This document shows positions 99 to 7,198 of a stretch of DNA of 7,198 nucleotides, one piece after another. Position numbers and translations under genes: made by a program. Source of the stretch: a virus (taxonomy: Duplodnaviria; Heunggongvirae; Uroviricota; Caudoviricetes); IMG/VR virus record IMGVR_UViG_2698536458_000011, one strand, 5' to 3'. Under the pieces are notes generated by a model. The model did not search any database and was not told where the DNA came from. It saw only the letters and a list, made by a program, of their open reading frames with translations. Each line of letters opens with the position of its first letter. The stretch's first letter is position 1.

Positions 99-1157
99 TC
101 ATCCGTTCTGGCTGACTAAATCCTGTACTTCCCGAACCGTCTGCTCAAAACGTTCAGTCTCCAGCTCAACGCCAATTGCACGACGCCCGAGCGCCAGTGC
201 CGCTTTCACTGTCGAACCCAACCCCATGAAAAAATCTGCAATCAGGTCACCCGGACGACTGCTAGCGCTGATTATCTGCTGCAGCATTTCTGCCGGTTTT
301 TCGCACGGATGTTTCCCGGGATAGAACTGCACCGGTTTATGCGTCCACACATCGGTATACGGCACCTGCACCGTCACGCCAAAATACCGCCGCAGATGTT
401 TATATTCACTCAGCAGCTCCGCATACTGCCGGTTCAGTGAGGTATACGTATCCACCAGCTGGTGGTGGAGCTTTTCCAGTTCACCACGCCGATGCTTCTC
501 TTCTGCCACCCGGGCAAACAGCGCCTGTAATTTCAGATAATCGCTTTCATTCGGCAACTGCCACTGACCGGCACTGAACCAGTGCGACACCATGTTTTTC
601 TTTCCTGTGGCATCTGCAATCTGTTTTGCCGTTATCCCCAGGGCAGCTCGCGCATCACGAAAGTAAGAAATCAGCGGGGCCATCACATGCTGTTTCAGTG
701 CACTGCCCTTCGCCGCATACCCGGCATCTTTCGGACGATACGGCCCCTGATAATGTTCCGCGAACAGAATGCGCTCTGTGGCGGGGAAATACGCCCGCAG
801 GCTTTCCTTGTTGCATCCGTTCCAGCGTCCGGACGGCTTCGCCCAGATAATATGGTTCAGCACACTGAAGCGTTCACGCATCATGATTTCGATATCAGAT
901 GCCAGGCGATGACCACAGAACAGGTAAAGACTTCCGGCAGGTTTCAGCACCCGCCAGAACTGCGCCAGACACTGGTCCAGCCACTTCAGGTAATCATCGT
1001 CGCCCTTCCACTGGTTATCCCAGCCCTCAGGCTTCACTTTAAAGTACGGCGGGTCCGTGACTATCAGGTCAACAGAATTTTCGGGTAACGACCGGATAAA
1101 TTCCAGGCAGTCGGCGTTGATTAACTCACAACTGGATATTTTTACAGTATTAAGCAT
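99..1157 (-). CDS. DNA methyltransferase, beta-class amino-MTase (probable N6-adenine), 352 aa
   Basis: N-terminal motif IV VTDPPY (aa 33-38) and C-terminal motif I DFFMGLGST (aa ~300-310), the circularly permuted order typical of beta-class N6A/N4C MTases. ATG at 1157; stop abuts the downstream tRNA promoter. No restriction endonuclease gene is visible beside it. Confidence 0.85.
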   Translation of the reverse strand: MLNTVKISSCELINADCLEFIRSLPENSVDLIVTDPPYFKVKPEGWDNQWKGDDDYLKWLDQCLAQFWRVLKPAGSLYLFCGHRLASDIEIMMRERFSVLNHIIWAKPSGRWNGCNKESLRAYFPATERILFAEHYQGPYRPKDAGYAAKGSALKQHVMAPLISYFRDARAALGITAKQIADATGKKNMVSHWFSAGQWQLPNESDYLKLQALFARVAEEKHRRGELEKLHHQLVDTYTSLNRQYAELLSEYKHLRRYFGVTVQVPYTDVWTHKPVQFYPGKHPCEKPAEMLQQIISASSRPGDLIADFFMGLGSTVKAALALGRRAIGVELETERFEQTVREVQDLVSQNG

Positions 1158-1454
1158 GGATCATTAAGCCTGTCTCTGATAGGCTCATTCTGCTTTTGCN
1201 TTTTAACAAACTCCCCGCAAACCAGACAACAGTCAACCGCCTGAATTGTGAAGTATTTAAAAATTTCTCCCGCTAACTGATACCCGGCTAACAGTCTGGC
1301 GTTTTCTTTTTCAGCAACGGGAAAGCAACAACCACCACACCCGCCACCAGCACACCGTCAGCCAGCACTGACATTATCCGGCTGCTGCAATGCCATTCAC
1401 AAAAACAGTAAGCAATCACTTTTTACCGTAACAGGTGATAATCCAGATATGTAT

Positions 1455-1808
1455 CTACCCCAGATGAGTAATCCGAAGTTCATCCATACCACAGGTCCTG
1501 GCTATTCTGTTGTACTCCTGAACAAGAGCAAATAATTCTGAATTAGCAACCATGAACTCATCGCAAACCCTCTGTATAGCATCACTATTCAGAATAATAA
1601 CGTCTCTTCCCGAAAGACGATCAGGAGTACAGAACAAAACTGTCAAACGGCTGAAGGCCTTTGCTCGTGCTGCATTGACTATATCAATACGCTGCCTAAG
1701 GATGAAACACCCCGACGCCTCATCAATATTCACTCTACCCACACCATATGAATGATAAATATTTAATGCTGAAAAAACCATTAGACCGTATAACAAACAC
1801 TCAATCAA
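1455..1808 (-). CDS. Hypothetical protein, up to 117 aa (TTG at 1808; first ATG at 1781 gives 108 aa)
   Basis: Longest ORF in an AT-rich (~40% GC) segment on the same strand as all neighbours. No convincing Shine-Dalgarno for either start; an in-frame stop at 1812-1814 rules out extension into the N-run. No recognisable motif. Confidence 0.35.
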   Translation of the reverse strand: MIECLLYGLMVFSALNIYHSYGVGRVNIDEASGCFILRQRIDIVNAARAKAFSRLTVLFCTPDRLSGRDVIILNSDAIQRVCDEFMVANSELFALVQEYNRIARTCGMDELRITHLG

Positions 1809-1860
1809 TACTTAACAGAACTTTTATTTTTGACAAACATAAAATATTTTCAACAATATC

Positions 1861-2337
1861 NNNNNNNNNNNNNNNNNNNNNNNNNNNNNNNNNNNNNNNN
1901 NNNNNNNNNNNNNNNNNNNNNNNNNNNNNNNNNNNNNNNNNNNNNNNNNNNNNNNNNNNNNNNNNNNNNNNNNNNNNNNNNNNNNNNNNNNNNNNNNNNN
2001 NNNNNNNNNNNNNNNNNNNNNNNNNNNNNNNNNNNNNNNNNNNNNNNNNNNNNNNNNNNNNNNNNNNNNNNNNNNNNNNNNNNNNNNNNNNNNNNNNNNN
2101 NNNNNNNNNNNNNNNNNNNNNNNNNNNNNNNNNNNNNNNNNNNNNNNNNNNNNNNNNNNNNNNNNNNNNNNNNNNNNNNNNNNNNNNNNNNNNNNNNNNN
2201 NNNNNNNNNNNNNNNNNNNNNNNNNNNNNNNNNNNNNNNNNNNNNNNNNNNNNNNNNNNNNNNNNNNNNNNNNNNNNNNNNNNNNNNNNNNNNNNNNNNN
2301 NNNNNNNNNNNNNNNNNNNNNNNNNNNNNNNNNNNNN
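1861..2337. other. Run of 477 N (assembly gap or masked sequence)
   Basis: Uninterrupted n characters; nothing can be annotated here. Confidence 0.98.
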
Positions 2338-2421
2338 ACCGCCATCGGGGACCCGCCCCCGCACCAACAACCCTGTTATCGTGTCGTCTGCTCTTCCTGA
2401 TAAGCTAATGGCGGTTTGTGA

Positions 2422-2497
2422 TGGTGGCCCTTGCTGGATTTGAACCAGCGACCTGGCGATTATGAGTCGCTCGCTCTCACCACTGAGCTAAAGGGCC
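2422..2497 (-). tRNA. tRNA with anticodon CAU, 76 nt with encoded CCA; resembles E. coli tRNA-Ile2 (ileX/ileZ-like), tRNA-Met not excluded
   Basis: Reverse complement: GGCCCTTTAGCTCAGTGGTGAGAGCGAGCGACTCATAATCGCCAGGTCGCTGGTTCAAATCCAGCAAGGGCCACCA. 7-bp acceptor stem GGCCCTT/AAGGGCC, GTTCAAATCC T-arm, CAT at positions 34-36, 3' CCA. Differs at only a few positions from the ileX sequence as I recall it. Confidence 0.9.
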
Positions 2498-2506
2498 GGG
2501 AGCAGA

Positions 2507-2535
2507 ATAATAACGGTCCGTAATTAATTCCGCAA
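2507..2535 (-). promoter_or_regulatory. Candidate sigma70 promoter for the tRNA (minus strand -35 TTGCGG, 17-bp spacer, -10 TATTAT)
   Basis: Plus-strand ccgcaa at 2530-2535 and ataata at 2507-2512; the -10 ends 9 nt upstream of the tRNA 5' end. Confidence 0.4.
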
Positions 2536-2558
2536 TAAAAAACCCGCTCGGCGGCGGG
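2534..2558 (-). terminator. Rho-independent terminator downstream of the Q-like gene (tR'-like)
   Basis: Minus strand reads CCCGCCGCCGAGCGGG (GC-rich hairpin, stem CCCGC/GCGGG) followed by TTTTTTATT. It lies 35-40 bp after the Q stop and immediately upstream of the tRNA promoter. Confidence 0.55.
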
Positions 2559-2599
2559 TTGTAGAAACTCTTCTAACGTCAGGCATAAAACGCCCATAG

Positions 2600-3454
2600 T
2601 TATGACGAATTTACCACAGATTCCGGAAAAATCAACCTAGTTACCTTTTTTAACTGCCGCTCAGCCCATGCTTCTTCAATATCAAACCGGGTCACCAGCG
2701 CATCATAGAATTTCTTAACTGTTTTTTCCCATGACGCGCGTGTTATCTGGTTTGTCACCTCGCATATAGCATTAAATGCCTCCGTTGATGGTAGTCTTTC
2801 ATAGCCACGACCACCACAACGCTGGCAGTCTCTGATAACAGGCATACCACGTTTTACCGACTCTTCACGATGAATGGCGACACCACGCCCACGGCAATCC
2901 TTACAGGCGGTGGAAACCTCACCCTTTCCGCCACACTCCGGACAGGCAACTTTTACCACCTCCCTGACTTTTTTCCATTCTTCCCAGTAAGACGGATACA
3001 CACCTTTCGTACACTTTGCCCATACCGGCGGCTTACCATCCGGATACTGGATCTTGTTTGTAAAAACCTCGCTTTCAATAAATTTTTTTCCGTGACAGCA
3101 GGGGCACTGTTTTTTGCTCGCCGCGCTACGGGCATAATCTTCAAACGCATACGAAGCCATAATACGCATCACTGCCGGTTTTATTTCTGCCGGGAGTTTT
3201 CTTAACGCCGCCACGCGATCACACCGACTGAGTGCATATTCTGTCAGCAATTCTGTTGCCCGCTCTCTGTCATTCATACTAATGCCCATTTTCCCAAGGA
3301 ACGCAGAAACCCCCATCTCAGCCCGATTCTGTGTCATGCCCTGCGCGGCCATCACATCAGTGATACTCAGCGCATCTTTCGACGTTGAGGCCGATGCATC
3401 AGTCAGGCCGGGGGATTTTGGGGAGTAGTATTTCGGTAAATCTTCCAGTTTCAT
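2600..3454 (-). CDS. Q-like late antitermination protein (QuuQ/Q82-type family suspected), 284 aa, with four DnaJ-type CxxCxGxG repeats
   Basis: ATG at 3454 overlaps the rusA stop (ATGA). The position, directly after rusA and before a terminator plus tRNA, is the canonical Q slot. The N-terminus MKLEDLPKYYSPKSP resembles Q-like prophage antiterminators from recall. Repeats at aa 117-124, 171-178, 184-191, 210-217. Confidence 0.65.
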   Translation of the reverse strand: MKLEDLPKYYSPKSPGLTDASASTSKDALSITDVMAAQGMTQNRAEMGVSAFLGKMGISMNDRERATELLTEYALSRCDRVAALRKLPAEIKPAVMRIMASYAFEDYARSAASKKQCPCCHGKKFIESEVFTNKIQYPDGKPPVWAKCTKGVYPSYWEEWKKVREVVKVACPECGGKGEVSTACKDCRGRGVAIHREESVKRGMPVIRDCQRCGGRGYERLPSTEAFNAICEVTNQITRASWEKTVKKFYDALVTRFDIEEAWAERQLKKVTRLIFPESVVNSS

Positions 3455-3825
3455 TTTTTGACCTGCTCTTCATGCATTATGGGGTAAATCTTCACCCCCA
3501 GACGTCCACCAGATACTGGCTGACCACGAACGATATTGATTTCATCAAACTGCTCATCGTCCATTAACACTCCCGCATGTGTCAGTGCATCCAGTGGTGC
3601 TTTCAGGATATTGTCCAGGTCACGACGGCGCTTATCCGGTGGCTCTGCAATAATCTTTATCGCCAGTCTTCCGGACAGGCTTAATTTCAGTCGCTGCTGA
3701 CGGACAATAAGCGCCACATCCCGGCGATAACGCTCACCGGCTTTTGATACAAAATATGTGTTGTCACGACGTCGCCAGTAAGTATTCACCGTCGGCGGAT
3801 AAGGTAAAATAAACTCATGGCGCAT
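3451..3825 (-). CDS. rusA: Crossover junction endodeoxyribonuclease RusA (Holliday junction resolvase), 124 aa
   Basis: RusA family hallmarks: LPYPPTVNTYWRRR near the N-terminus, RRRDLDN, DAL..DDEQ, GGRL. AGGAGG Shine-Dalgarno 10 nt upstream of the ATG at 3825. Confidence 0.85.
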   Translation of the reverse strand: MRHEFILPYPPTVNTYWRRRDNTYFVSKAGERYRRDVALIVRQQRLKLSLSGRLAIKIIAEPPDKRRRDLDNILKAPLDALTHAGVLMDDEQFDEINIVRGQPVSGGRLGVKIYPIMHEEQVKK

Positions 3826-4082
3826 CAGCGCAGCACCTCCTGCACCAGTTTTTCAAACTTTCCGACTCTGGTTTCCAGCTCTGCCACACAGTCCACCAGC
3901 TCATCTACTGCTTTCTGTGCGCGATGCTTCGCCTGCATCAGTTCCCGAAGCGCGGGTACCATATCTTTACGGATAGCGTCTTTTGTTATGCCCGTTTTTT
4001 CGAGTTGTTCAGCATGACGCAGCATTTCCTGCGCGTGTTTACGCAATTGTTCAGGGGTAAAAGTCATTGTCTGGTTGTTCAA
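3825..4082 (-). CDS. Hypothetical small protein, 85 aa from TTG at 4082 (80 aa from ATG at 4067); predicted helical/coiled-coil
   Basis: GGAG sits 8 nt upstream of the TTG; the stop TGA overlaps the rusA ATG (TGATG). Charged, helix-forming composition (EQLRKHAQEMLRHAEQLEK...). It sits between the truncated and intact rusA copies. Confidence 0.5.
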   Translation of the reverse strand: MNNQTMTFTPEQLRKHAQEMLRHAEQLEKTGITKDAIRKDMVPALRELMQAKHRAQKAVDELVDCVAELETRVGKFEKLVQEVLR

Positions 4083-4206
4083 AAGAAACGCTCCATCTTA
4101 CTGCTGTCAGTTCGTTTATTACTGTATCTGCGCGGATTGCCGGGCTTCATGGGAGTGGAAAGCACCCGTGCACTTTCCTGGTCCACAGGCAGAAAATGTC
4201 CGTAGN

Positions 4207-4365
4207 GGACAGGCTTAATTTCAGCCGCTGCTGGCGAACAATAAGCGCCACTGCCCGGCGATAACGCTCCCCGGCTTTTGATACAAAATATGTGCTGCCA
4301 CGACGACGCCAGTAAGTGTTCACCGTCGGCGGGTAAGGTAAAACAAATTCTATGCGCTCGGTCAT
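4207..4365 (-). pseudogene. Truncated rusA remnant (N-terminal ~52 codons only)
   Basis: The ORF starts MTERIEFVLPYPPTVNTYWRRRGSTYFVSKAGERYRRAVALIVRQQRLKLSLS, then loses RusA similarity exactly at the ambiguous base n4206. DNA 4207-4353 is ~90% identical to 3673-3819. Its ATG directly follows the DUF968 gene stop (TAA-ATG). Confidence 0.75.
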
Positions 4366-5424
4366 TTATGCTTTCCACTTCAGAACACCCGAATTTCTCG
4401 CGTGCATTAAAAAACGAATCAGCAACAACAGCTGACTGCCGTGTTTCTCTTCAAAATCTTTTACTCCGGCATGTAGTTCGTTACGGCATTTACGGCATAA
4501 CGGAATAACAAACAAATCATCAGCCTTTGTTCCCATCCCTCCCAGTCCATGACCAATGATGTGATGCGGATCATCTGCCTGATTGCCACACGTCATGCAT
4601 TTCTGCGTTTTTACCCAGCGCGTGTATACAGGCATCTCTTCCCGTTGTGATTTCTGGCGCTGGAGATACTGAGCCGGTGACTCCGGATCAACGGCAATGC
4701 TGACCACCGTCTTTTCCTGTGGTGGGTTCTGTTGCTGGTGGACGTGAGGCAGTAACGCAATATTTTTTGTGCGCTGCTTCAGTATGCTGGTGGCTGTCTG
4801 CTCTCCCGGTATGATGTCGCTTTCACTGTACACAGAGCGAATTTTTTCCGCACGCAACCCCAGCGAACGACGTAATACCGCTTCCGGTAGCGCGTCCGCC
4901 ACCTGATTGCGGACCGCCCACCAGGATAATTCAGCCAGAGATAATTCACGCTCCTGCGTACCGCTTATTGCGTGACCGATGACGTCAATCATCCATGCTG
5001 ACAGGTTTTGATGAGCAAGTTGCTCGAGTGATTCGGATGTCTGGTCACGCAGCTGGTTGTCGCAGTGCCAGCACAACACCATTGCGCCGGTACCATAACG
5101 GTGAATGACGGTTTCGCTGTGATGATAATCGCCGTGTGGCCACTGGCAGGATTTAATATGGCGCAACAGCCAGTCAGACAATGCACCAGCACCACCAGCA
5201 GCACGAATCACCCGTGCGTTACTGAAAAACGGCAGCAATGTTTTGTCTTCCACCAGCGGCTGGCGAGCGGCAGGAACGACCCCGGACGGCAGATTACGCA
5301 TGCTTTTTGGTTCCGGCTCCACCAGTATTCTGCCGTTATGGAATGCTGACATTGATTCACGGCCTGGCTTAACGATAACCAGACCGAGTTCCGGTACCAG
5401 AACAGGTCGAAGTAATACCCGCAC
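4366..5424 (-). CDS. DUF968/YdfU-like prophage protein, 352 aa, with a C-terminal Cys/His-rich (HNH-like or zinc-ribbon) motif
   Basis: Long ORF with ATG at 5424 preceded by GGAGG (spacing only 2 nt, so the true start may differ). C-terminus CMTCGNQADDPHHIIGHGLGG...CRKCRNELH. Size and position upstream of rusA match YdfU-type proteins of E. coli prophages as I recall them. Confidence 0.75.
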   Translation of the reverse strand: MRVLLRPVLVPELGLVIVKPGRESMSAFHNGRILVEPEPKSMRNLPSGVVPAARQPLVEDKTLLPFFSNARVIRAAGGAGALSDWLLRHIKSCQWPHGDYHHSETVIHRYGTGAMVLCWHCDNQLRDQTSESLEQLAHQNLSAWMIDVIGHAISGTQERELSLAELSWWAVRNQVADALPEAVLRRSLGLRAEKIRSVYSESDIIPGEQTATSILKQRTKNIALLPHVHQQQNPPQEKTVVSIAVDPESPAQYLQRQKSQREEMPVYTRWVKTQKCMTCGNQADDPHHIIGHGLGGMGTKADDLFVIPLCRKCRNELHAGVKDFEEKHGSQLLLLIRFLMHARNSGVLKWKA

Positions 5425-5499
5425 ATTACCTCCAGATCCGTTGCTGGAATGTGCGGGACGGACGCGTTGGCCGTTCGGAGTAAGGGAGCCTGACGGAGA

Positions 5500-5781
5500 T
5501 TATCCAGTGACGGTAGTCGAGGCTAAGGGCTTTTTTAACCTCGCATCCGCGCCTGCGGTAACACTGAATGAGCCATTCGGCCTGTTCTTCAGTGCATGGG
5601 GGATGCTGGTACCAATCAGATTTAAATGCGTGAGAGCGCCGCCCGTGCCTGCTGGCAAAGACGGCTGAATTATCAGAATTGTGTAGTCTGGAAGGCAGTG
5701 GCTGACAATAGCGCCATTCTCAACGCGCACAGTATAGAGGCCATCTTCACTAAAAATTTCACGTAATTCTTCGATTTTCAT
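5500..5781 (-). CDS. Hypothetical prophage protein, 93 aa
   Basis: ATG at 5781 with a strong Shine-Dalgarno (GGAAGGA, 8-nt spacer); same strand as neighbours. The C-terminal half is Gly/Thr/Ala-rich with no recognisable motif. Confidence 0.5.
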   Translation of the reverse strand: MKIEELREIFSEDGLYTVRVENGAIVSHCLPDYTILIIQPSLPAGTGGALTHLNLIGTSIPHALKNRPNGSFSVTAGADARLKKPLASTTVTG

Positions 5782-5863
5782 CAACAGAATCCTTCCAGAT
5801 AAATAGCACTCCCCTGTTCGGGGTCCATCCCTCTTCTCCCTGCGCGCTACTTAAGTATTTTTG

Positions 5864-5893
5864 ATTCTATTCCGGCACCATCTAAAACTTCAA
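5864..5893 (-). promoter_or_regulatory. Candidate sigma70 promoter (minus strand -35 TTGAAG, 18-bp spacer, -10 TAGAAT) upstream of the 93-aa ORF and YdfU-like gene
   Basis: Plus-strand cttcaa at 5888-5893 and attcta at 5864-5869, immediately downstream of the hok terminator and ~80 nt upstream of the ATG at 5781. Confidence 0.3.
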
Positions 5894-5900
5894 ACGCGTT

Positions 5901-5932
5901 GAAAATAAAAACAAAAACCCGCCGAAGCGGGT
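5901..5932 (-). terminator. Rho-independent terminator of the hok mRNA
   Basis: Minus strand reads ACCCGC-TTCG-GCGGGT (5-6 bp GC stem with a UUCG tetraloop) followed by TTTTTGTTTTTATTTT. Confidence 0.8.
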
Positions 5933-6001
5933 TAAGTGTGGGTGCATTGAGGATGCCTGACCCATCAGAGGTGGCGAGGGATTTCTCCCCCGCCTGGTCT
6001 C

Positions 6002-6157
6002 TTACTCCTCAGGTTCGTAAGCTGTGAAGACAGCGACCTCCGTCTGGCCGGTTCGAATTCGTACCTCGCAGAGGTCTTTCCTCGTTACCAGTGCCGTCAC
6101 TATGACGGTTAAACAGATGACGATCAGGGCGATTAACATCGCCTTTTGCTGCTTCAT
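6002..6157 (-). CDS. hok: Hok-family type I toxin (HokD/RelF-like), 51 aa
   Basis: Translation MKQQKAMLIALIVICLTVIVTALVTRKDLCEVRIRTGQTEVAVFTAYEPEE is a canonical Hok sequence (single transmembrane helix, conserved C-terminal Cys). AAGGAG Shine-Dalgarno 9 nt upstream of the ATG at 6157. Confidence 0.9.
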   Translation of the reverse strand: MKQQKAMLIALIVICLTVIVTALVTRKDLCEVRIRTGQTEVAVFTAYEPEE

Positions 6158-6214
6158 AGCCTGCTTCTCCTTGCCTTTCGGCACGTAAGAGGCTAACCTA
6201 GATTTGCCGTTCAT
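6002..6214 (-). CDS. mok: mok-like reading frame (in-frame N-terminally extended, 70 aa) that mediates hok translation
   Basis: ATG at 6214 opens a 70-codon frame that contains hok in frame, the same geometry as known Mok/Hok pairs (e.g. MokC/HokC). GAGG lies ~10 nt upstream. Confidence 0.55.
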   Translation of the reverse strand: MNGKSRLASYVPKGKEKQAMKQQKAMLIALIVICLTVIVTALVTRKDLCEVRIRTGQTEVAVFTAYEPEE

Positions 6215-6333
6215 AGATTGAGCCTCAGATTAATGTTAAGCGTCTTGCCGGACGCGTAATGTTAACTGGGGCTTTTCTCTATCTGCCTTTTGGTGTTCAT
6301 GCCTGAGACAGATAGCCTCAAGCACCCGCTGCA

Positions 6334-6361
6334 ATTCTACTTAACTCTCCTTTTCCCGCAA
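6334..6361 (-). promoter_or_regulatory. Candidate hok/mok promoter (minus strand -35 TTGCGG, 16-bp spacer, -10 TAGAAT)
   Basis: Plus-strand ccgcaa at 6356-6361 and attcta at 6334-6339. The predicted start (~6325-6327) would begin the transcript with GGGUGCUUGAGG, which is complementary to CCUCAAUGCACCC near the 3' end (plus strand 5940-5952), as in hok fold-back inhibition. Confidence 0.45.
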
Positions 6362-6368
6362 ACCGTTT

Positions 6369-6452
6369 TTATCCCCAGCGGCAAATCGAATACACCACCA
6401 GCGCCACCGCCATCGCAATTCCTACCGTTGTTAATGCTTCAGGCCAGGTCAT
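6369..6452 (-). CDS. Putative 27-aa hydrophobic peptide ([27 protein letters not shown])
   Basis: Not in the supplied ORF track (too short). ATG at 6452 with a GGAGGA Shine-Dalgarno 9 nt upstream, overlapping the stop of the 114-aa ORF (ATGA). One predicted transmembrane helix. Ends just upstream of the hok promoter. Confidence 0.4.
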
Positions 6453-6793
6453 CGTAAAATATCCTCCACGCTTATCAGTCCGTTCCGCTCCAGATAACTC
6501 ATCGCCTTATCCGGTAATTTGCAGTCTGGCTTCGCTTTCCTCAGTTGCCAGGTTAACTGCTTTACCAGCATGGTTAACTCATCGACCAGACGCTGATATC
6601 CCACTGGTTTGTATTCATGCAATTTACCGGCTGGCTCTGCTGCCAGCGATACCAGTGCGATTTCCAGAACAGCAATATCCATCTTATATGTGCGGATGAT
6701 GTCATGGTCGATTGTGCCCGGTATGCACAGTCTCTGTGCTTCAATAGTCTCCTCTGCGTGAGCTATTAACTGCTCTCTGGTAAAAGTCGTCAT
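6449..6793 (-). CDS. Hypothetical protein, 114 aa; paralog of the upstream 55-aa ORF
   Basis: ATG at 6793 overlaps the stop of the 55-aa ORF (ATGA). Shares an MTTxT N-terminus and the motif [10 protein letters not shown] with the 55-aa ORF ([10 protein letters not shown]). Plus strand 6633-6661 matches 6836-6864 at 25/29 nt. Confidence 0.65.
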
Positions 6794-6957
6794 GCCGTAG
6801 CCCCTTCTTGATATTTTTCAAACCAGAACACAACCGGCTCTGCTTCCAGCGATGCCAGCGCAATCCGTGCCAGTTCCATTTGTTCACCACGGGTAAGCCC
6901 GTTTTCAAGCGGGTTTTTAATGAACAATTCAATACGTTCTTTGGTAATAGTGGTCAT
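6790..6957 (-). CDS. Hypothetical small protein, 55 aa ([55 protein letters not shown])
   Basis: Not in the supplied ORF track. ATG at 6957 lies 10 nt after the stop of the upstream partial ORF; its stop overlaps the next start (ATGA). Paralogous to the N-terminal half of the 114-aa ORF. Confidence 0.5.
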
Positions 6958-6967
6958 GTGTTACTCC

Positions 6968-7198
6968 TTAACCCGCAGTGCTTTCAACTGATGAGGGGAA
7001 CAAAATCTTTTCATCAAACCCTGCATTCATATCATGAACAGCAACACACCAATCCATCGACGAACGATTATCAAGAGCCTCCATGATTTCATCCATGCGG
7101 CGTAGGTCATACAGGTAAATGCTTTTATCGCCAATGGTGTAAAAGCCAATTTTTTTCGGTGATGGATGAGGTGTACTGGCAATAGCGGACACTACCAT
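6968..7198 (-). CDS. Hypothetical protein, C-terminal 76 codons (probably 5'-truncated by the window edge)
   Basis: Open frame on the gene strand running to the window edge, stop TAA at 6968-6970. The ATG at the edge may be coincidental. No recognisable motif. Confidence 0.5.
   Translation of the reverse strand: MVVSAIASTPHPSPKKIGFYTIGDKSIYLYDLRRMDEIMEALDNRSSMDWCVAVHDMNAGFDEKILFPSSVESTAG

Follow-up and report, generated by a model that had tools for sequence, protein, structure and literature searches.

The open reading frame (ORF) on the minus strand at positions 99–1157 of the window, i.e. the whole 7,198-nucleotide stretch of viral DNA analysed here (IMG/VR record IMGVR_UViG_2698536458_000011), very probably encodes an orthologue of M.EcoGI and M.EcoGII and thus a non-specific N6-adenine DNA methyltransferase (MTase); that this particular allele is active is what we infer. 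We document the integrity of the gene, its family membership, its near-identity to characterised enzymes, its orphan status, and its true gene order, which is not the order seen in the window. The gene is real and was correctly described by the original prediction, but the enzyme is of an already characterised kind and the finding itself is ordinary. Published work already covers the family, its non-specificity, the fact that it is silent in lysogens, and the anti-restriction role presumed for it, and the finding as stated matters little; M.EcoGII is a commercial chromatin-footprinting reagent.

The methyltransferase gene and its relatives

The ORF is uninterrupted and complete from ATG to stop (352 aa), and the Pfam profile PF01555 (N6_N4_Mtase) matches it end to end (residues 29–340, E = 7.9e-42). 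Two motifs can be read from the sequence, both encoded on the minus strand: the catalytic motif IV, DPPY, at aa 35–38 (nt 1044–1055), which is invariant in all 81 homologues that cover the site, and the AdoMet-binding motif I, F-M-G-L-G, at aa 310–314 (nt 216–230). Beta-class enzymes carry motif IV (D/S-P-P-Y/F) N-terminal to the FxGxG of motif I, with the recognition domain between the two, and the ORF has this order; the original description of a beta-class DPPY...FxGxG amino-MTase therefore holds. The nearest solved structures by sequence are likewise beta-class adenine MTases (8URK/9C3U, M.RsrI, CcrM, DpnA, and M.MboIIA), with which the N- and C-terminal catalytic halves can be aligned, whereas the centre cannot.

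The assignment to the M.EcoGI/M.EcoGII type rests on the ORF, the Pfam match, and identity to these enzymes. The protein is identical at 336 of 348 positions to WP_000935536.1 (locus L001), one of the two prophage MTases of E. coli O104:H4 C227-11, and is ~93% identical to M.EcoGII (Table S1, PMC11551740; GenBank EGT69837.1), the latter sequence having been compared as machine-read Table S1 text with a few obvious reading errors. Because the C227-11 copy differs from M.EcoGII at ~15 positions, which fits the published identity of 333/349 between M.EcoGI and M.EcoGII, we take this copy to be M.EcoGI. Membership of the clade was defined as a full-length, ungapped alignment in which 90% or more of the residues are identical to those of the characterised enzymes, and the window MTase aligns with them in this way. 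It shares with them the beta-class motif order, nearly the same size (349 versus 352 aa, aligned over the whole length without gaps), 96–97% identity to the presumed M.EcoGI and ~93% to M.EcoGII, and a prophage location 3′ of the antiterminator gene Q and 5′ of tRNA-Ile/Arg, without an endonuclease. It differs in its host, which is Shigella, and, relative to the C227-11 copy, in 12 substitutions (including S313L in motif I and S197G) and in a C-terminus that is 3 aa longer.

M.EcoGI and M.EcoGII methylate adenine in any context (Murray et al., PMC5778455), are not expressed in the lysogen, and slow growth upon expression (PMC5778455). A 2025 review groups M.EcoGII with Mu Mom as lysogen-silent and toxic (PMC12707154), and reconstructed or engineered ancestors of the M.EcoGII clade stay non-specific (PMC11551740). 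Orthologues of the M.EcoGI/M.EcoGII type in ST131 and O111 strains have been filed as ‘nonspecific’ and found silent (PMC4659465, PMC6602927). These are M.EcoMV, of the E. coli ST131 EC958 prophage Phi4, and M.Eco95JB1I/II, of O111 STEC; they come from other host lineages, were filed as non-specific purely on the basis of 92–99% similarity to M.EcoGI/GII, such that their presumed non-specificity is sequence-derived too, and are transcriptionally silent without a methylation signature in lysogens (PMC4659465, PMC6602927). The original prediction had pointed out that some prophage-borne beta-class MTases have relaxed or near-nonspecific adenine specificity and had called the specificity worth testing: with 93–97% identity to two non-specific enzymes, the test has in effect already been made (PMC5778455).

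The family is very large and occurs in E. coli prophages and in phage 1720a-02 (PMC5778455). This phage is also among the DNA matches of the window, and the window DNA is 84–95% identical to genes called ‘DNA methylase’ in many lambdoid phages, Stx-converting ones among them. The MTase gene is present in 2,021 of 5,426 complete E. coli genomes (37%), in up to seven places per genome, and public databases already contain the exact 352-aa protein, on ~1000 contigs that bear the names Shigella sonnei or Shigella flexneri.

Assembly of the window

The window contains Ns at 1200 (one), 1861–2337 (477), and 4206 (one), and precisely there homology is interrupted in every relative. The single N at 1200 joins unrelated contigs, and the resulting junction is absent from all 5,426 complete E. 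coli genomes. The single N at 4206 lies inside a RusA repeat; a search of the same 5,426 genomes for this second junction returned only two separated pieces at 85% identity, in ten genomes. By contrast with these junctions, the outer blocks 1–1199 (1199/1199) and 4207–7198 (2992/2992) match eight complete Shigella sonnei chromosomes at 100%, where they are just 1,570 bp apart. The block between them, 1200–4206 (3,007 bp), corresponds to a second lambdoid remnant ~0.65 Mb away on the same chromosome (CP104423.1). Below, L084 denotes the complete S. sonnei-type MTase locus and L095 the second remnant, which is without an MTase and has the order IS21, 85-aa ORF, RusA (124 aa), Q (284 aa), tRNA-Ile, tRNA-Arg, DUF3927, and IraM/PmrD.

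All features named in this paragraph are on the minus strand. The stretch 1201–1860 is 100% identical to L095 8299–7640 and holds, by Pfam and PHROG matches, DUF3927 (1288–1419) and a phrog_2873 ORF (1455–1808); its real position is 3′ of the tRNAs. The stretch 2338–4205, also from the second-remnant contig, is 98.0% identical to L095 and 96.7% to L084, and contains a tRNA-Ile2 (2422–2497), a tR′-like terminator hairpin (2541–2560), pR′-like hexamers TTGATT-16-TAAATT (2608–2635), Q (2600–3454), RusA (3451–3825), and the 85-aa ORF (3825–4082). This Q is a hybrid of two paralogous alleles: in 2535–3823, all 36 mismatches to L095, located at 2690–3410 inside Q, carry the L084 base, and database records of the hybrid 284-aa protein are confined to draft contigs of less than 200 kb. 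One draft scaffold with the hybrid Q (L094) is visibly scrambled. The true upstream flank of the MTase remnant is 4207–7198, which is identical to L084 6388–3397 at all 2,992 positions and continues there into RusA, Q, a 65-aa ORF, and the MTase; it holds an N-terminal RusA fragment (4207–4365), DUF968 (4366–5424, Pfam), hok/sok (6002–6327, Rfam sok), and small ORFs. At the other end of the window, directly 3′ of the MTase, the first 58 nt of a tRNA-Ile2 (anticodon CAU) occupy 1–58, the Rfam tRNA match being cut at its 3′ end by the window edge. This tRNA is called Met by ARAGORN and is annotated as tRNA-Ile in RefSeq.

We considered the possibility that the window order is a genuine tandem recombinant and rejected it. 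The single Ns coincide exactly with the homology breakpoints; not one of the 5,426 E. coli genomes has the 1200 junction, and that at 4206 is seen only as separated 85% pieces; and the flanks are contiguous and canonical in eight Shigella chromosomes, while the hybrid Q is confined to short draft contigs. Because of these homology breaks, absent junctions, and canonical complete chromosomes, the layout ‘Q, terminator, tRNA, then MTase’ is an assembly artefact. The original prediction had placed the MTase downstream of Q, a tR′-like terminator, and a tRNA: these features are present, but their linkage to the MTase runs across two scaffold joins and they belong to the other remnant, and the tRNA placement has to be reversed, as complete genomes put the tRNAs downstream. 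Short-read scaffolds of strains with several lambdoid prophages can thus yield false gene orders and even hybrid genes, and synteny arguments from such draft windows need checking.

Gene order and late expression

In the eight S. sonnei chromosomes, the true order is hok, DUF968, RusA (126 aa), Q (273 aa), the 65-aa ORF, and the MTase, followed by tRNA-Ile2(CAU), tRNA-Arg(UCG), tRNA-Arg(UCU), an esterase, and a holin; in the real (S. sonnei-type) genome, the locus lies in an IS-riddled prophage remnant adjoining ompW. In L084, the stop codon of Q (PF03589) is followed by TTGATT-16 nt-TAAATT with TG just 5′ of the second hexamer. These pR′-like hexamers were read by eye (8/12 matches, under the threshold of a consensus scanner), and we regard them as a putative promoter. 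Some 40 nt after it comes a 7-bp G+C-rich hairpin with a T-run (7509–7528), the 65-aa ORF ends in a second terminator-like hairpin (7837–7854), and the MTase and the three tRNAs are followed by a strong terminator (9364–9381). Compared with the MTase-less remnant, the 65-aa ORF and the MTase form a clean 1.5-kb cassette between the tR′-like hairpin and the tRNA leader. DUF968 and RusA are not partners of the MTase, because they are also present in the MTase-less remnant. L084 thus shows the layout of a lambdoid late operon, with Q, promoter-like hexamers, a terminator, a same-strand cassette, tRNAs, and a holin.

The same arrangement recurs beyond Shigella. In a survey of 80 loci from other Enterobacterales species (drawn from a species-representative genome collection), a Q antiterminator, of any of three unrelated Pfam families, is found 5′ of the cassette in 43 of 63 loci and DUF1133 in another 14, and holins (39) and lysozymes (13) make up most of the ORFs that follow it 3′. 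Orphan status and a place at the head of the late operon are therefore properties of the family.

Expression that is confined to lytic growth and dependent on Q, as originally proposed, is still supported, and more directly than by the order of the window, given that complete genomes put the MTase directly 3′ of Q, a pR′-like promoter, and a tR′-like terminator. It also fits the published silence of M.EcoGI/GII-type genes in lysogens (PMC5778455, PMC4659465, PMC6602927, PMC12707154). The window allele is probably silent in a lysogen as well, as its position behind tR′ and the behaviour of its orthologues suggest. Our literature search found neither direct proof of Q driving the MTase gene nor a paper measuring Q dependence.

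Under the mechanism that we propose, the MTase would stand near the start of the late operon, where Q is followed by a constitutive pR′-like promoter and a short leader to the tR′-like terminator; then by the winged-helix-like 65-aa ORF, the second terminator-like hairpin, a structured leader of ~135 nt, and the MTase; and then by tRNA-Ile2/Arg/Arg, (an IS), and the lysis genes. Without Q, transcription would end at tR′ and the toxic enzyme would not be produced. Once Q is made in lytic growth, RNA polymerase would read through, and the enzyme would hypermethylate the replicating phage DNA and so might protect it from the many restriction systems that are blocked by m6A. No early or immunity genes are visible in the remnant that carries the MTase, and production of Q there may never occur.

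Alternative readings and the Shigella allele

If the gene were the modification half of a restriction–modification (R-M) system, a cognate endonuclease should be adjacent, as in Type II systems. The only support for this reading is the 477 unread bases nearby, a masked region in which, according to the original prediction, an endonuclease might be found. That stretch is a scaffold gap that belongs to the other prophage remnant and corresponds in the complete genome to 151 bp holding a tRNA-Arg(UCU); because of this content and size, it cannot hide an endonuclease. The MTase has the 65-aa ORF and tRNAs as its neighbours in complete genomes, and no endonuclease was found next to it in the window or in its relatives, nor any endonuclease family among those listed in the flanks of the 80 related loci. 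The claim of an orphan gene thus stands, and we consider an R-M system to be practically negligible as an explanation. Only slightly less improbable is a sequence-specific orphan MTase whose role in the host is epigenetic or regulatory. YhdJ and CcrM are likewise beta-class orphans, in NCBIfam the protein weakly resembles, below threshold, the YhdJ-type model PRK11524 as well as CcrM, and its RefSeq name is ‘site-specific DNA-methyltransferase’. The NCBIfam scores are, however, far under the cut-offs (111 versus 292 and 71 versus 830), and the 93–97% identity is to two enzymes shown to be non-specific (PMC5778455), and lysogens show no methylation signature of the orthologues (PMC4659465, PMC6602927). 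The sequence-specific N6A enzymes of the CcrM/YhdJ/M.RsrI/M.BceJIV type (PDB 6PBD, 1EG2, 8URK) share the catalytic fold and motifs with the window MTase (E = 1e-18 to 1e-25) but have a central recognition domain that cannot be aligned with it. A main target other than phage DNA, namely RNA or the host chromosome in a takeover of the host, is also very improbable: M.EcoGII does methylate RNA and DNA:RNA hybrids in vitro (PMC5778455, PMC11551740), but its RNA rate is ~100-fold below its DNA rate (Table S3, PMC11551740), and a Tad2-like anti-defence gene adjoins the MTase in 12 related loci, which points to counter-defence.

A more serious rival to an active non-specific MTase is a weakened or dead enzyme, given two substitutions at otherwise fixed positions in an IS-filled prophage remnant. 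Residue 313, the x between the two Gly of FxGxG, is Ser in 83 of 83 homologues from other species and in all 20 sampled members of the cluster, and is Leu only in the Shigella allele (codon 219–221, minus strand); residue 197, which lies in the recognition domain, is Gly here but Ser in 82 of the 83 homologues from other species. The Shigella copy could thus be decaying by neutral drift, never expressed, with its ORF still intact, in a dead prophage in which IS elements abound and neither immunity nor replication genes, nor most of the structural ones, can be recognised. We think this rather unlikely, though far from negligible. The ORF is full length and identical on ~1000 contigs, and DPPY, F310, G312, G314, and all other clade-invariant residues are kept. 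S313L as a clear knock-out could not be sustained: because the equivalent motif I position is Val in the active CcrM and Thr in TTHA0409, showing that beta-class enzymes tolerate either residue, inactivation is not callable from sequence alone. For the Shigella copy, the question is whether it is active rather than what it recognises. Both substitutions were missed by the earlier reader.

The small ORF and the leader upstream of the gene

Two further elements accompany the MTase. Of the 74 loci with enough sequence, 61 have a homologue of the 65-aa ORF no more than 700 nt 5′ of the MTase. This ORF is assigned to the functionally uncharacterised family phrog_331; Pfam gives only sub-threshold winged-helix matches (TrmB, HTH_24, and MarR_2), a winged-helix domain was matched weakly in a profile search against the PDB (E = 0.002), and PADLOC and NCBIfam returned no defence-system or curated-family match. 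Some homologues are named ‘TrmB family transcriptional regulator’ in RefSeq.

Between the small ORF and the ATG of the MTase lies a strongly conserved leader of ~135 nt, with a mean pairwise identity of 80.4% across 36 loci versus 68.4% for coding DNA and 45.4% for third codon positions. Four divergent leaders adopt the same predicted two-domain fold (−48 to −63 kcal/mol, z = −1.8 to −5.5), in whose second domain an upstream segment pairs with the nucleotides immediately before the AUG, a stretch without an evident Shine–Dalgarno sequence. When this structure is laid over the alignment, 88.6% of cells pair versus 30–39% with the partners slid, compensatory changes occur in 24 cells versus 9.7 expected (none of 500 shuffles reaches 24), and the AUG-proximal helix has six covarying pairs; as the structure was taken from one member of an alignment of related sequences, and is biased accordingly, these counts are supportive rather than proof. 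RNAalifold, run on the same alignment, arrived at a poor consensus to which covariation contributed little (covariation term −0.22), and the single-sequence fold fits the alignment much better than this consensus, being derived from an alignment member. At least 120 viral contigs contain a 24-nt motif of the leader; the MTase ATG follows this motif after 33–34 nt in 116 of 116 testable contigs, and the small ORF precedes it in 98 of 111. The leader was found only before this MTase family. A search of Rfam returned nothing at threshold, the leader having no entry there, and a literature search found nothing specific to it.

The small winged-helix-like ORF, the ~135-nt leader, and the MTase make up a three-part module across the family. 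We tentatively suggest, by analogy and as a possibility about which we remain somewhat doubtful, that the MTase is the output of an undescribed, dedicated control module consisting of the 65-aa phrog_331 protein, a leader that buries the start codon, and the enzyme. The small protein would then open the leader or bind its central palindrome, and production of the toxic enzyme would have to pass a second checkpoint in addition to Q antitermination. The analogy is with com–mom of phage Mu, in which a small ORF precedes mom, mRNA structure covers the translation start, and a small protein unlocks translation of the toxic modification enzyme; Mom itself is not an AdoMet methyltransferase. The two systems have in common a toxic, lysogen-silent phage DNA-modification enzyme (for the ‘silent and toxic’ parallel, see PMC12707154) and, in matching places, a small ORF ahead of the gene and mRNA structure at its translation start, here in the form of a leader helix that engages the nucleotides immediately 5′ of the AUG. 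They have no sequence relationship, however, and the 65-aa protein is winged-helix-like rather than a zinc finger, and we offer the parallel as an analogy only and not as a finding. If the small ORF and leader truly gate translation, this would explain how so toxic an enzyme is carried safely and could give a compact off-switch for M.EcoGII-based tools.

In the window, the leader is represented by its last 42 nt (1158–1199, minus strand), as identified from the leader alignment, folds, and pair counts, the remainder being cut off by the scaffold join. The join at 1200 falls at the centre of the near-palindrome of the leader.

A cassette around the methyltransferase

The methyltransferase ORF (99-1157, minus strand) is preceded by a non-coding leader of about 135 nt, of which the window retains the last part (1158-1199) and which is present in full at 7862-8000 of L084, a complete Shigella sonnei locus carrying the methyltransferase prophage remnant. 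Nucleotide identity across the leader is 80%, compared with 68% for the coding sequence and 45% for its third codon positions. The leader has a near-palindrome at its centre and a reproducible fold, in which the region immediately 5' of the AUG is predicted to be paired. It is found solely in front of methyltransferases of the M.EcoGI/M.EcoGII type and is not among the families of Rfam.

On the other side of the leader lies a conserved 65-aa ORF (L084 7653-7850) that is not in the window, where its expected position is just past 1199. This ORF belongs to phrog_331, with weak winged-helix similarity, and is located directly 5' of the methyltransferase gene in 61 of 74 loci, representing many genera, and on 98 of 111 viral contigs. 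The two genes are gained or lost jointly, as a single 1.5-kb cassette.

Downstream of the methyltransferase gene, a survey of loci L049-L083 (from Xenorhabdus, Photorhabdus, and others) identified ORFs with Tad2-like domains (PF11195, Thoeris anti-defence) immediately 3' of the gene in twelve cases and DUF7823 ORFs in nine. Their presence suggests that a small counter-defence islet lies where the late operon begins.

The Shigella methyltransferase allele differs from its relatives at two positions that are invariant or nearly so across 83 homologues: Leu replaces Ser in the FxGxG motif at codon 313 (219-221), and Gly replaces Ser in the recognition domain at codon 197 (567-569).

Scaffold structure and Q alleles

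As scaffolded, the window interleaves contigs from two lambdoid prophage remnants, which complete genomes of S. sonnei place approximately 0.65 Mb from each other. Ns mark the scaffold joins and gap (1200, 1861-2337, and 4206), and homology breakpoints coincide exactly with both single-N joins (1200 and 4206). The Q ORF (2600-3454) is itself a mix of two paralogous alleles: within 2535-3823, positions 2690-3410 match the Q allele of the methyltransferase prophage, and the remainder matches the other remnant. As the exact protein is recorded in databases on short draft contigs only, this hybrid is probably a collapsed-repeat product of assembly. Compared with the 273-aa allele, the Q gene of the second remnant lacks 8 nt (taacaagg; window 2600-2640, L084 7415-7440), a loss that lengthens the ORF to 284 aa and carries it across the pR'-like promoter. 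Complete genomes, too, have a Q of 284 aa (L095, a locus of the second remnant).

The last 32 nt of the window (7167-7198) have two further copies in L084, adjoining insertion sequence genes (rve-type transposase), and the right end of the window therefore reaches an insertion sequence boundary.

tRNAs and other elements

ARAGORN designates the tRNAs at 2422-2497 and 1-58 as Met(CAT); the identical genes are named tRNA-Ile by RefSeq, the lysidine-dependent ileZ type familiar from Stx phages. An alignment of both copies with their flanks covers 98 bases, 7 of which are different.

The prophage early-right region contains a hok/gef-family toxin ORF (PF01848; 6002-6214) with a sok antisense RNA (Rfam RF01794, 112 bits; 6152-6327). 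A 117-aa ORF (1455-1808; phrog_2873, E = 4e-70), unannotated in RefSeq relatives, adjoins a 43-aa DUF3927/TciB-like ORF (1288-1419; phrog_1470).
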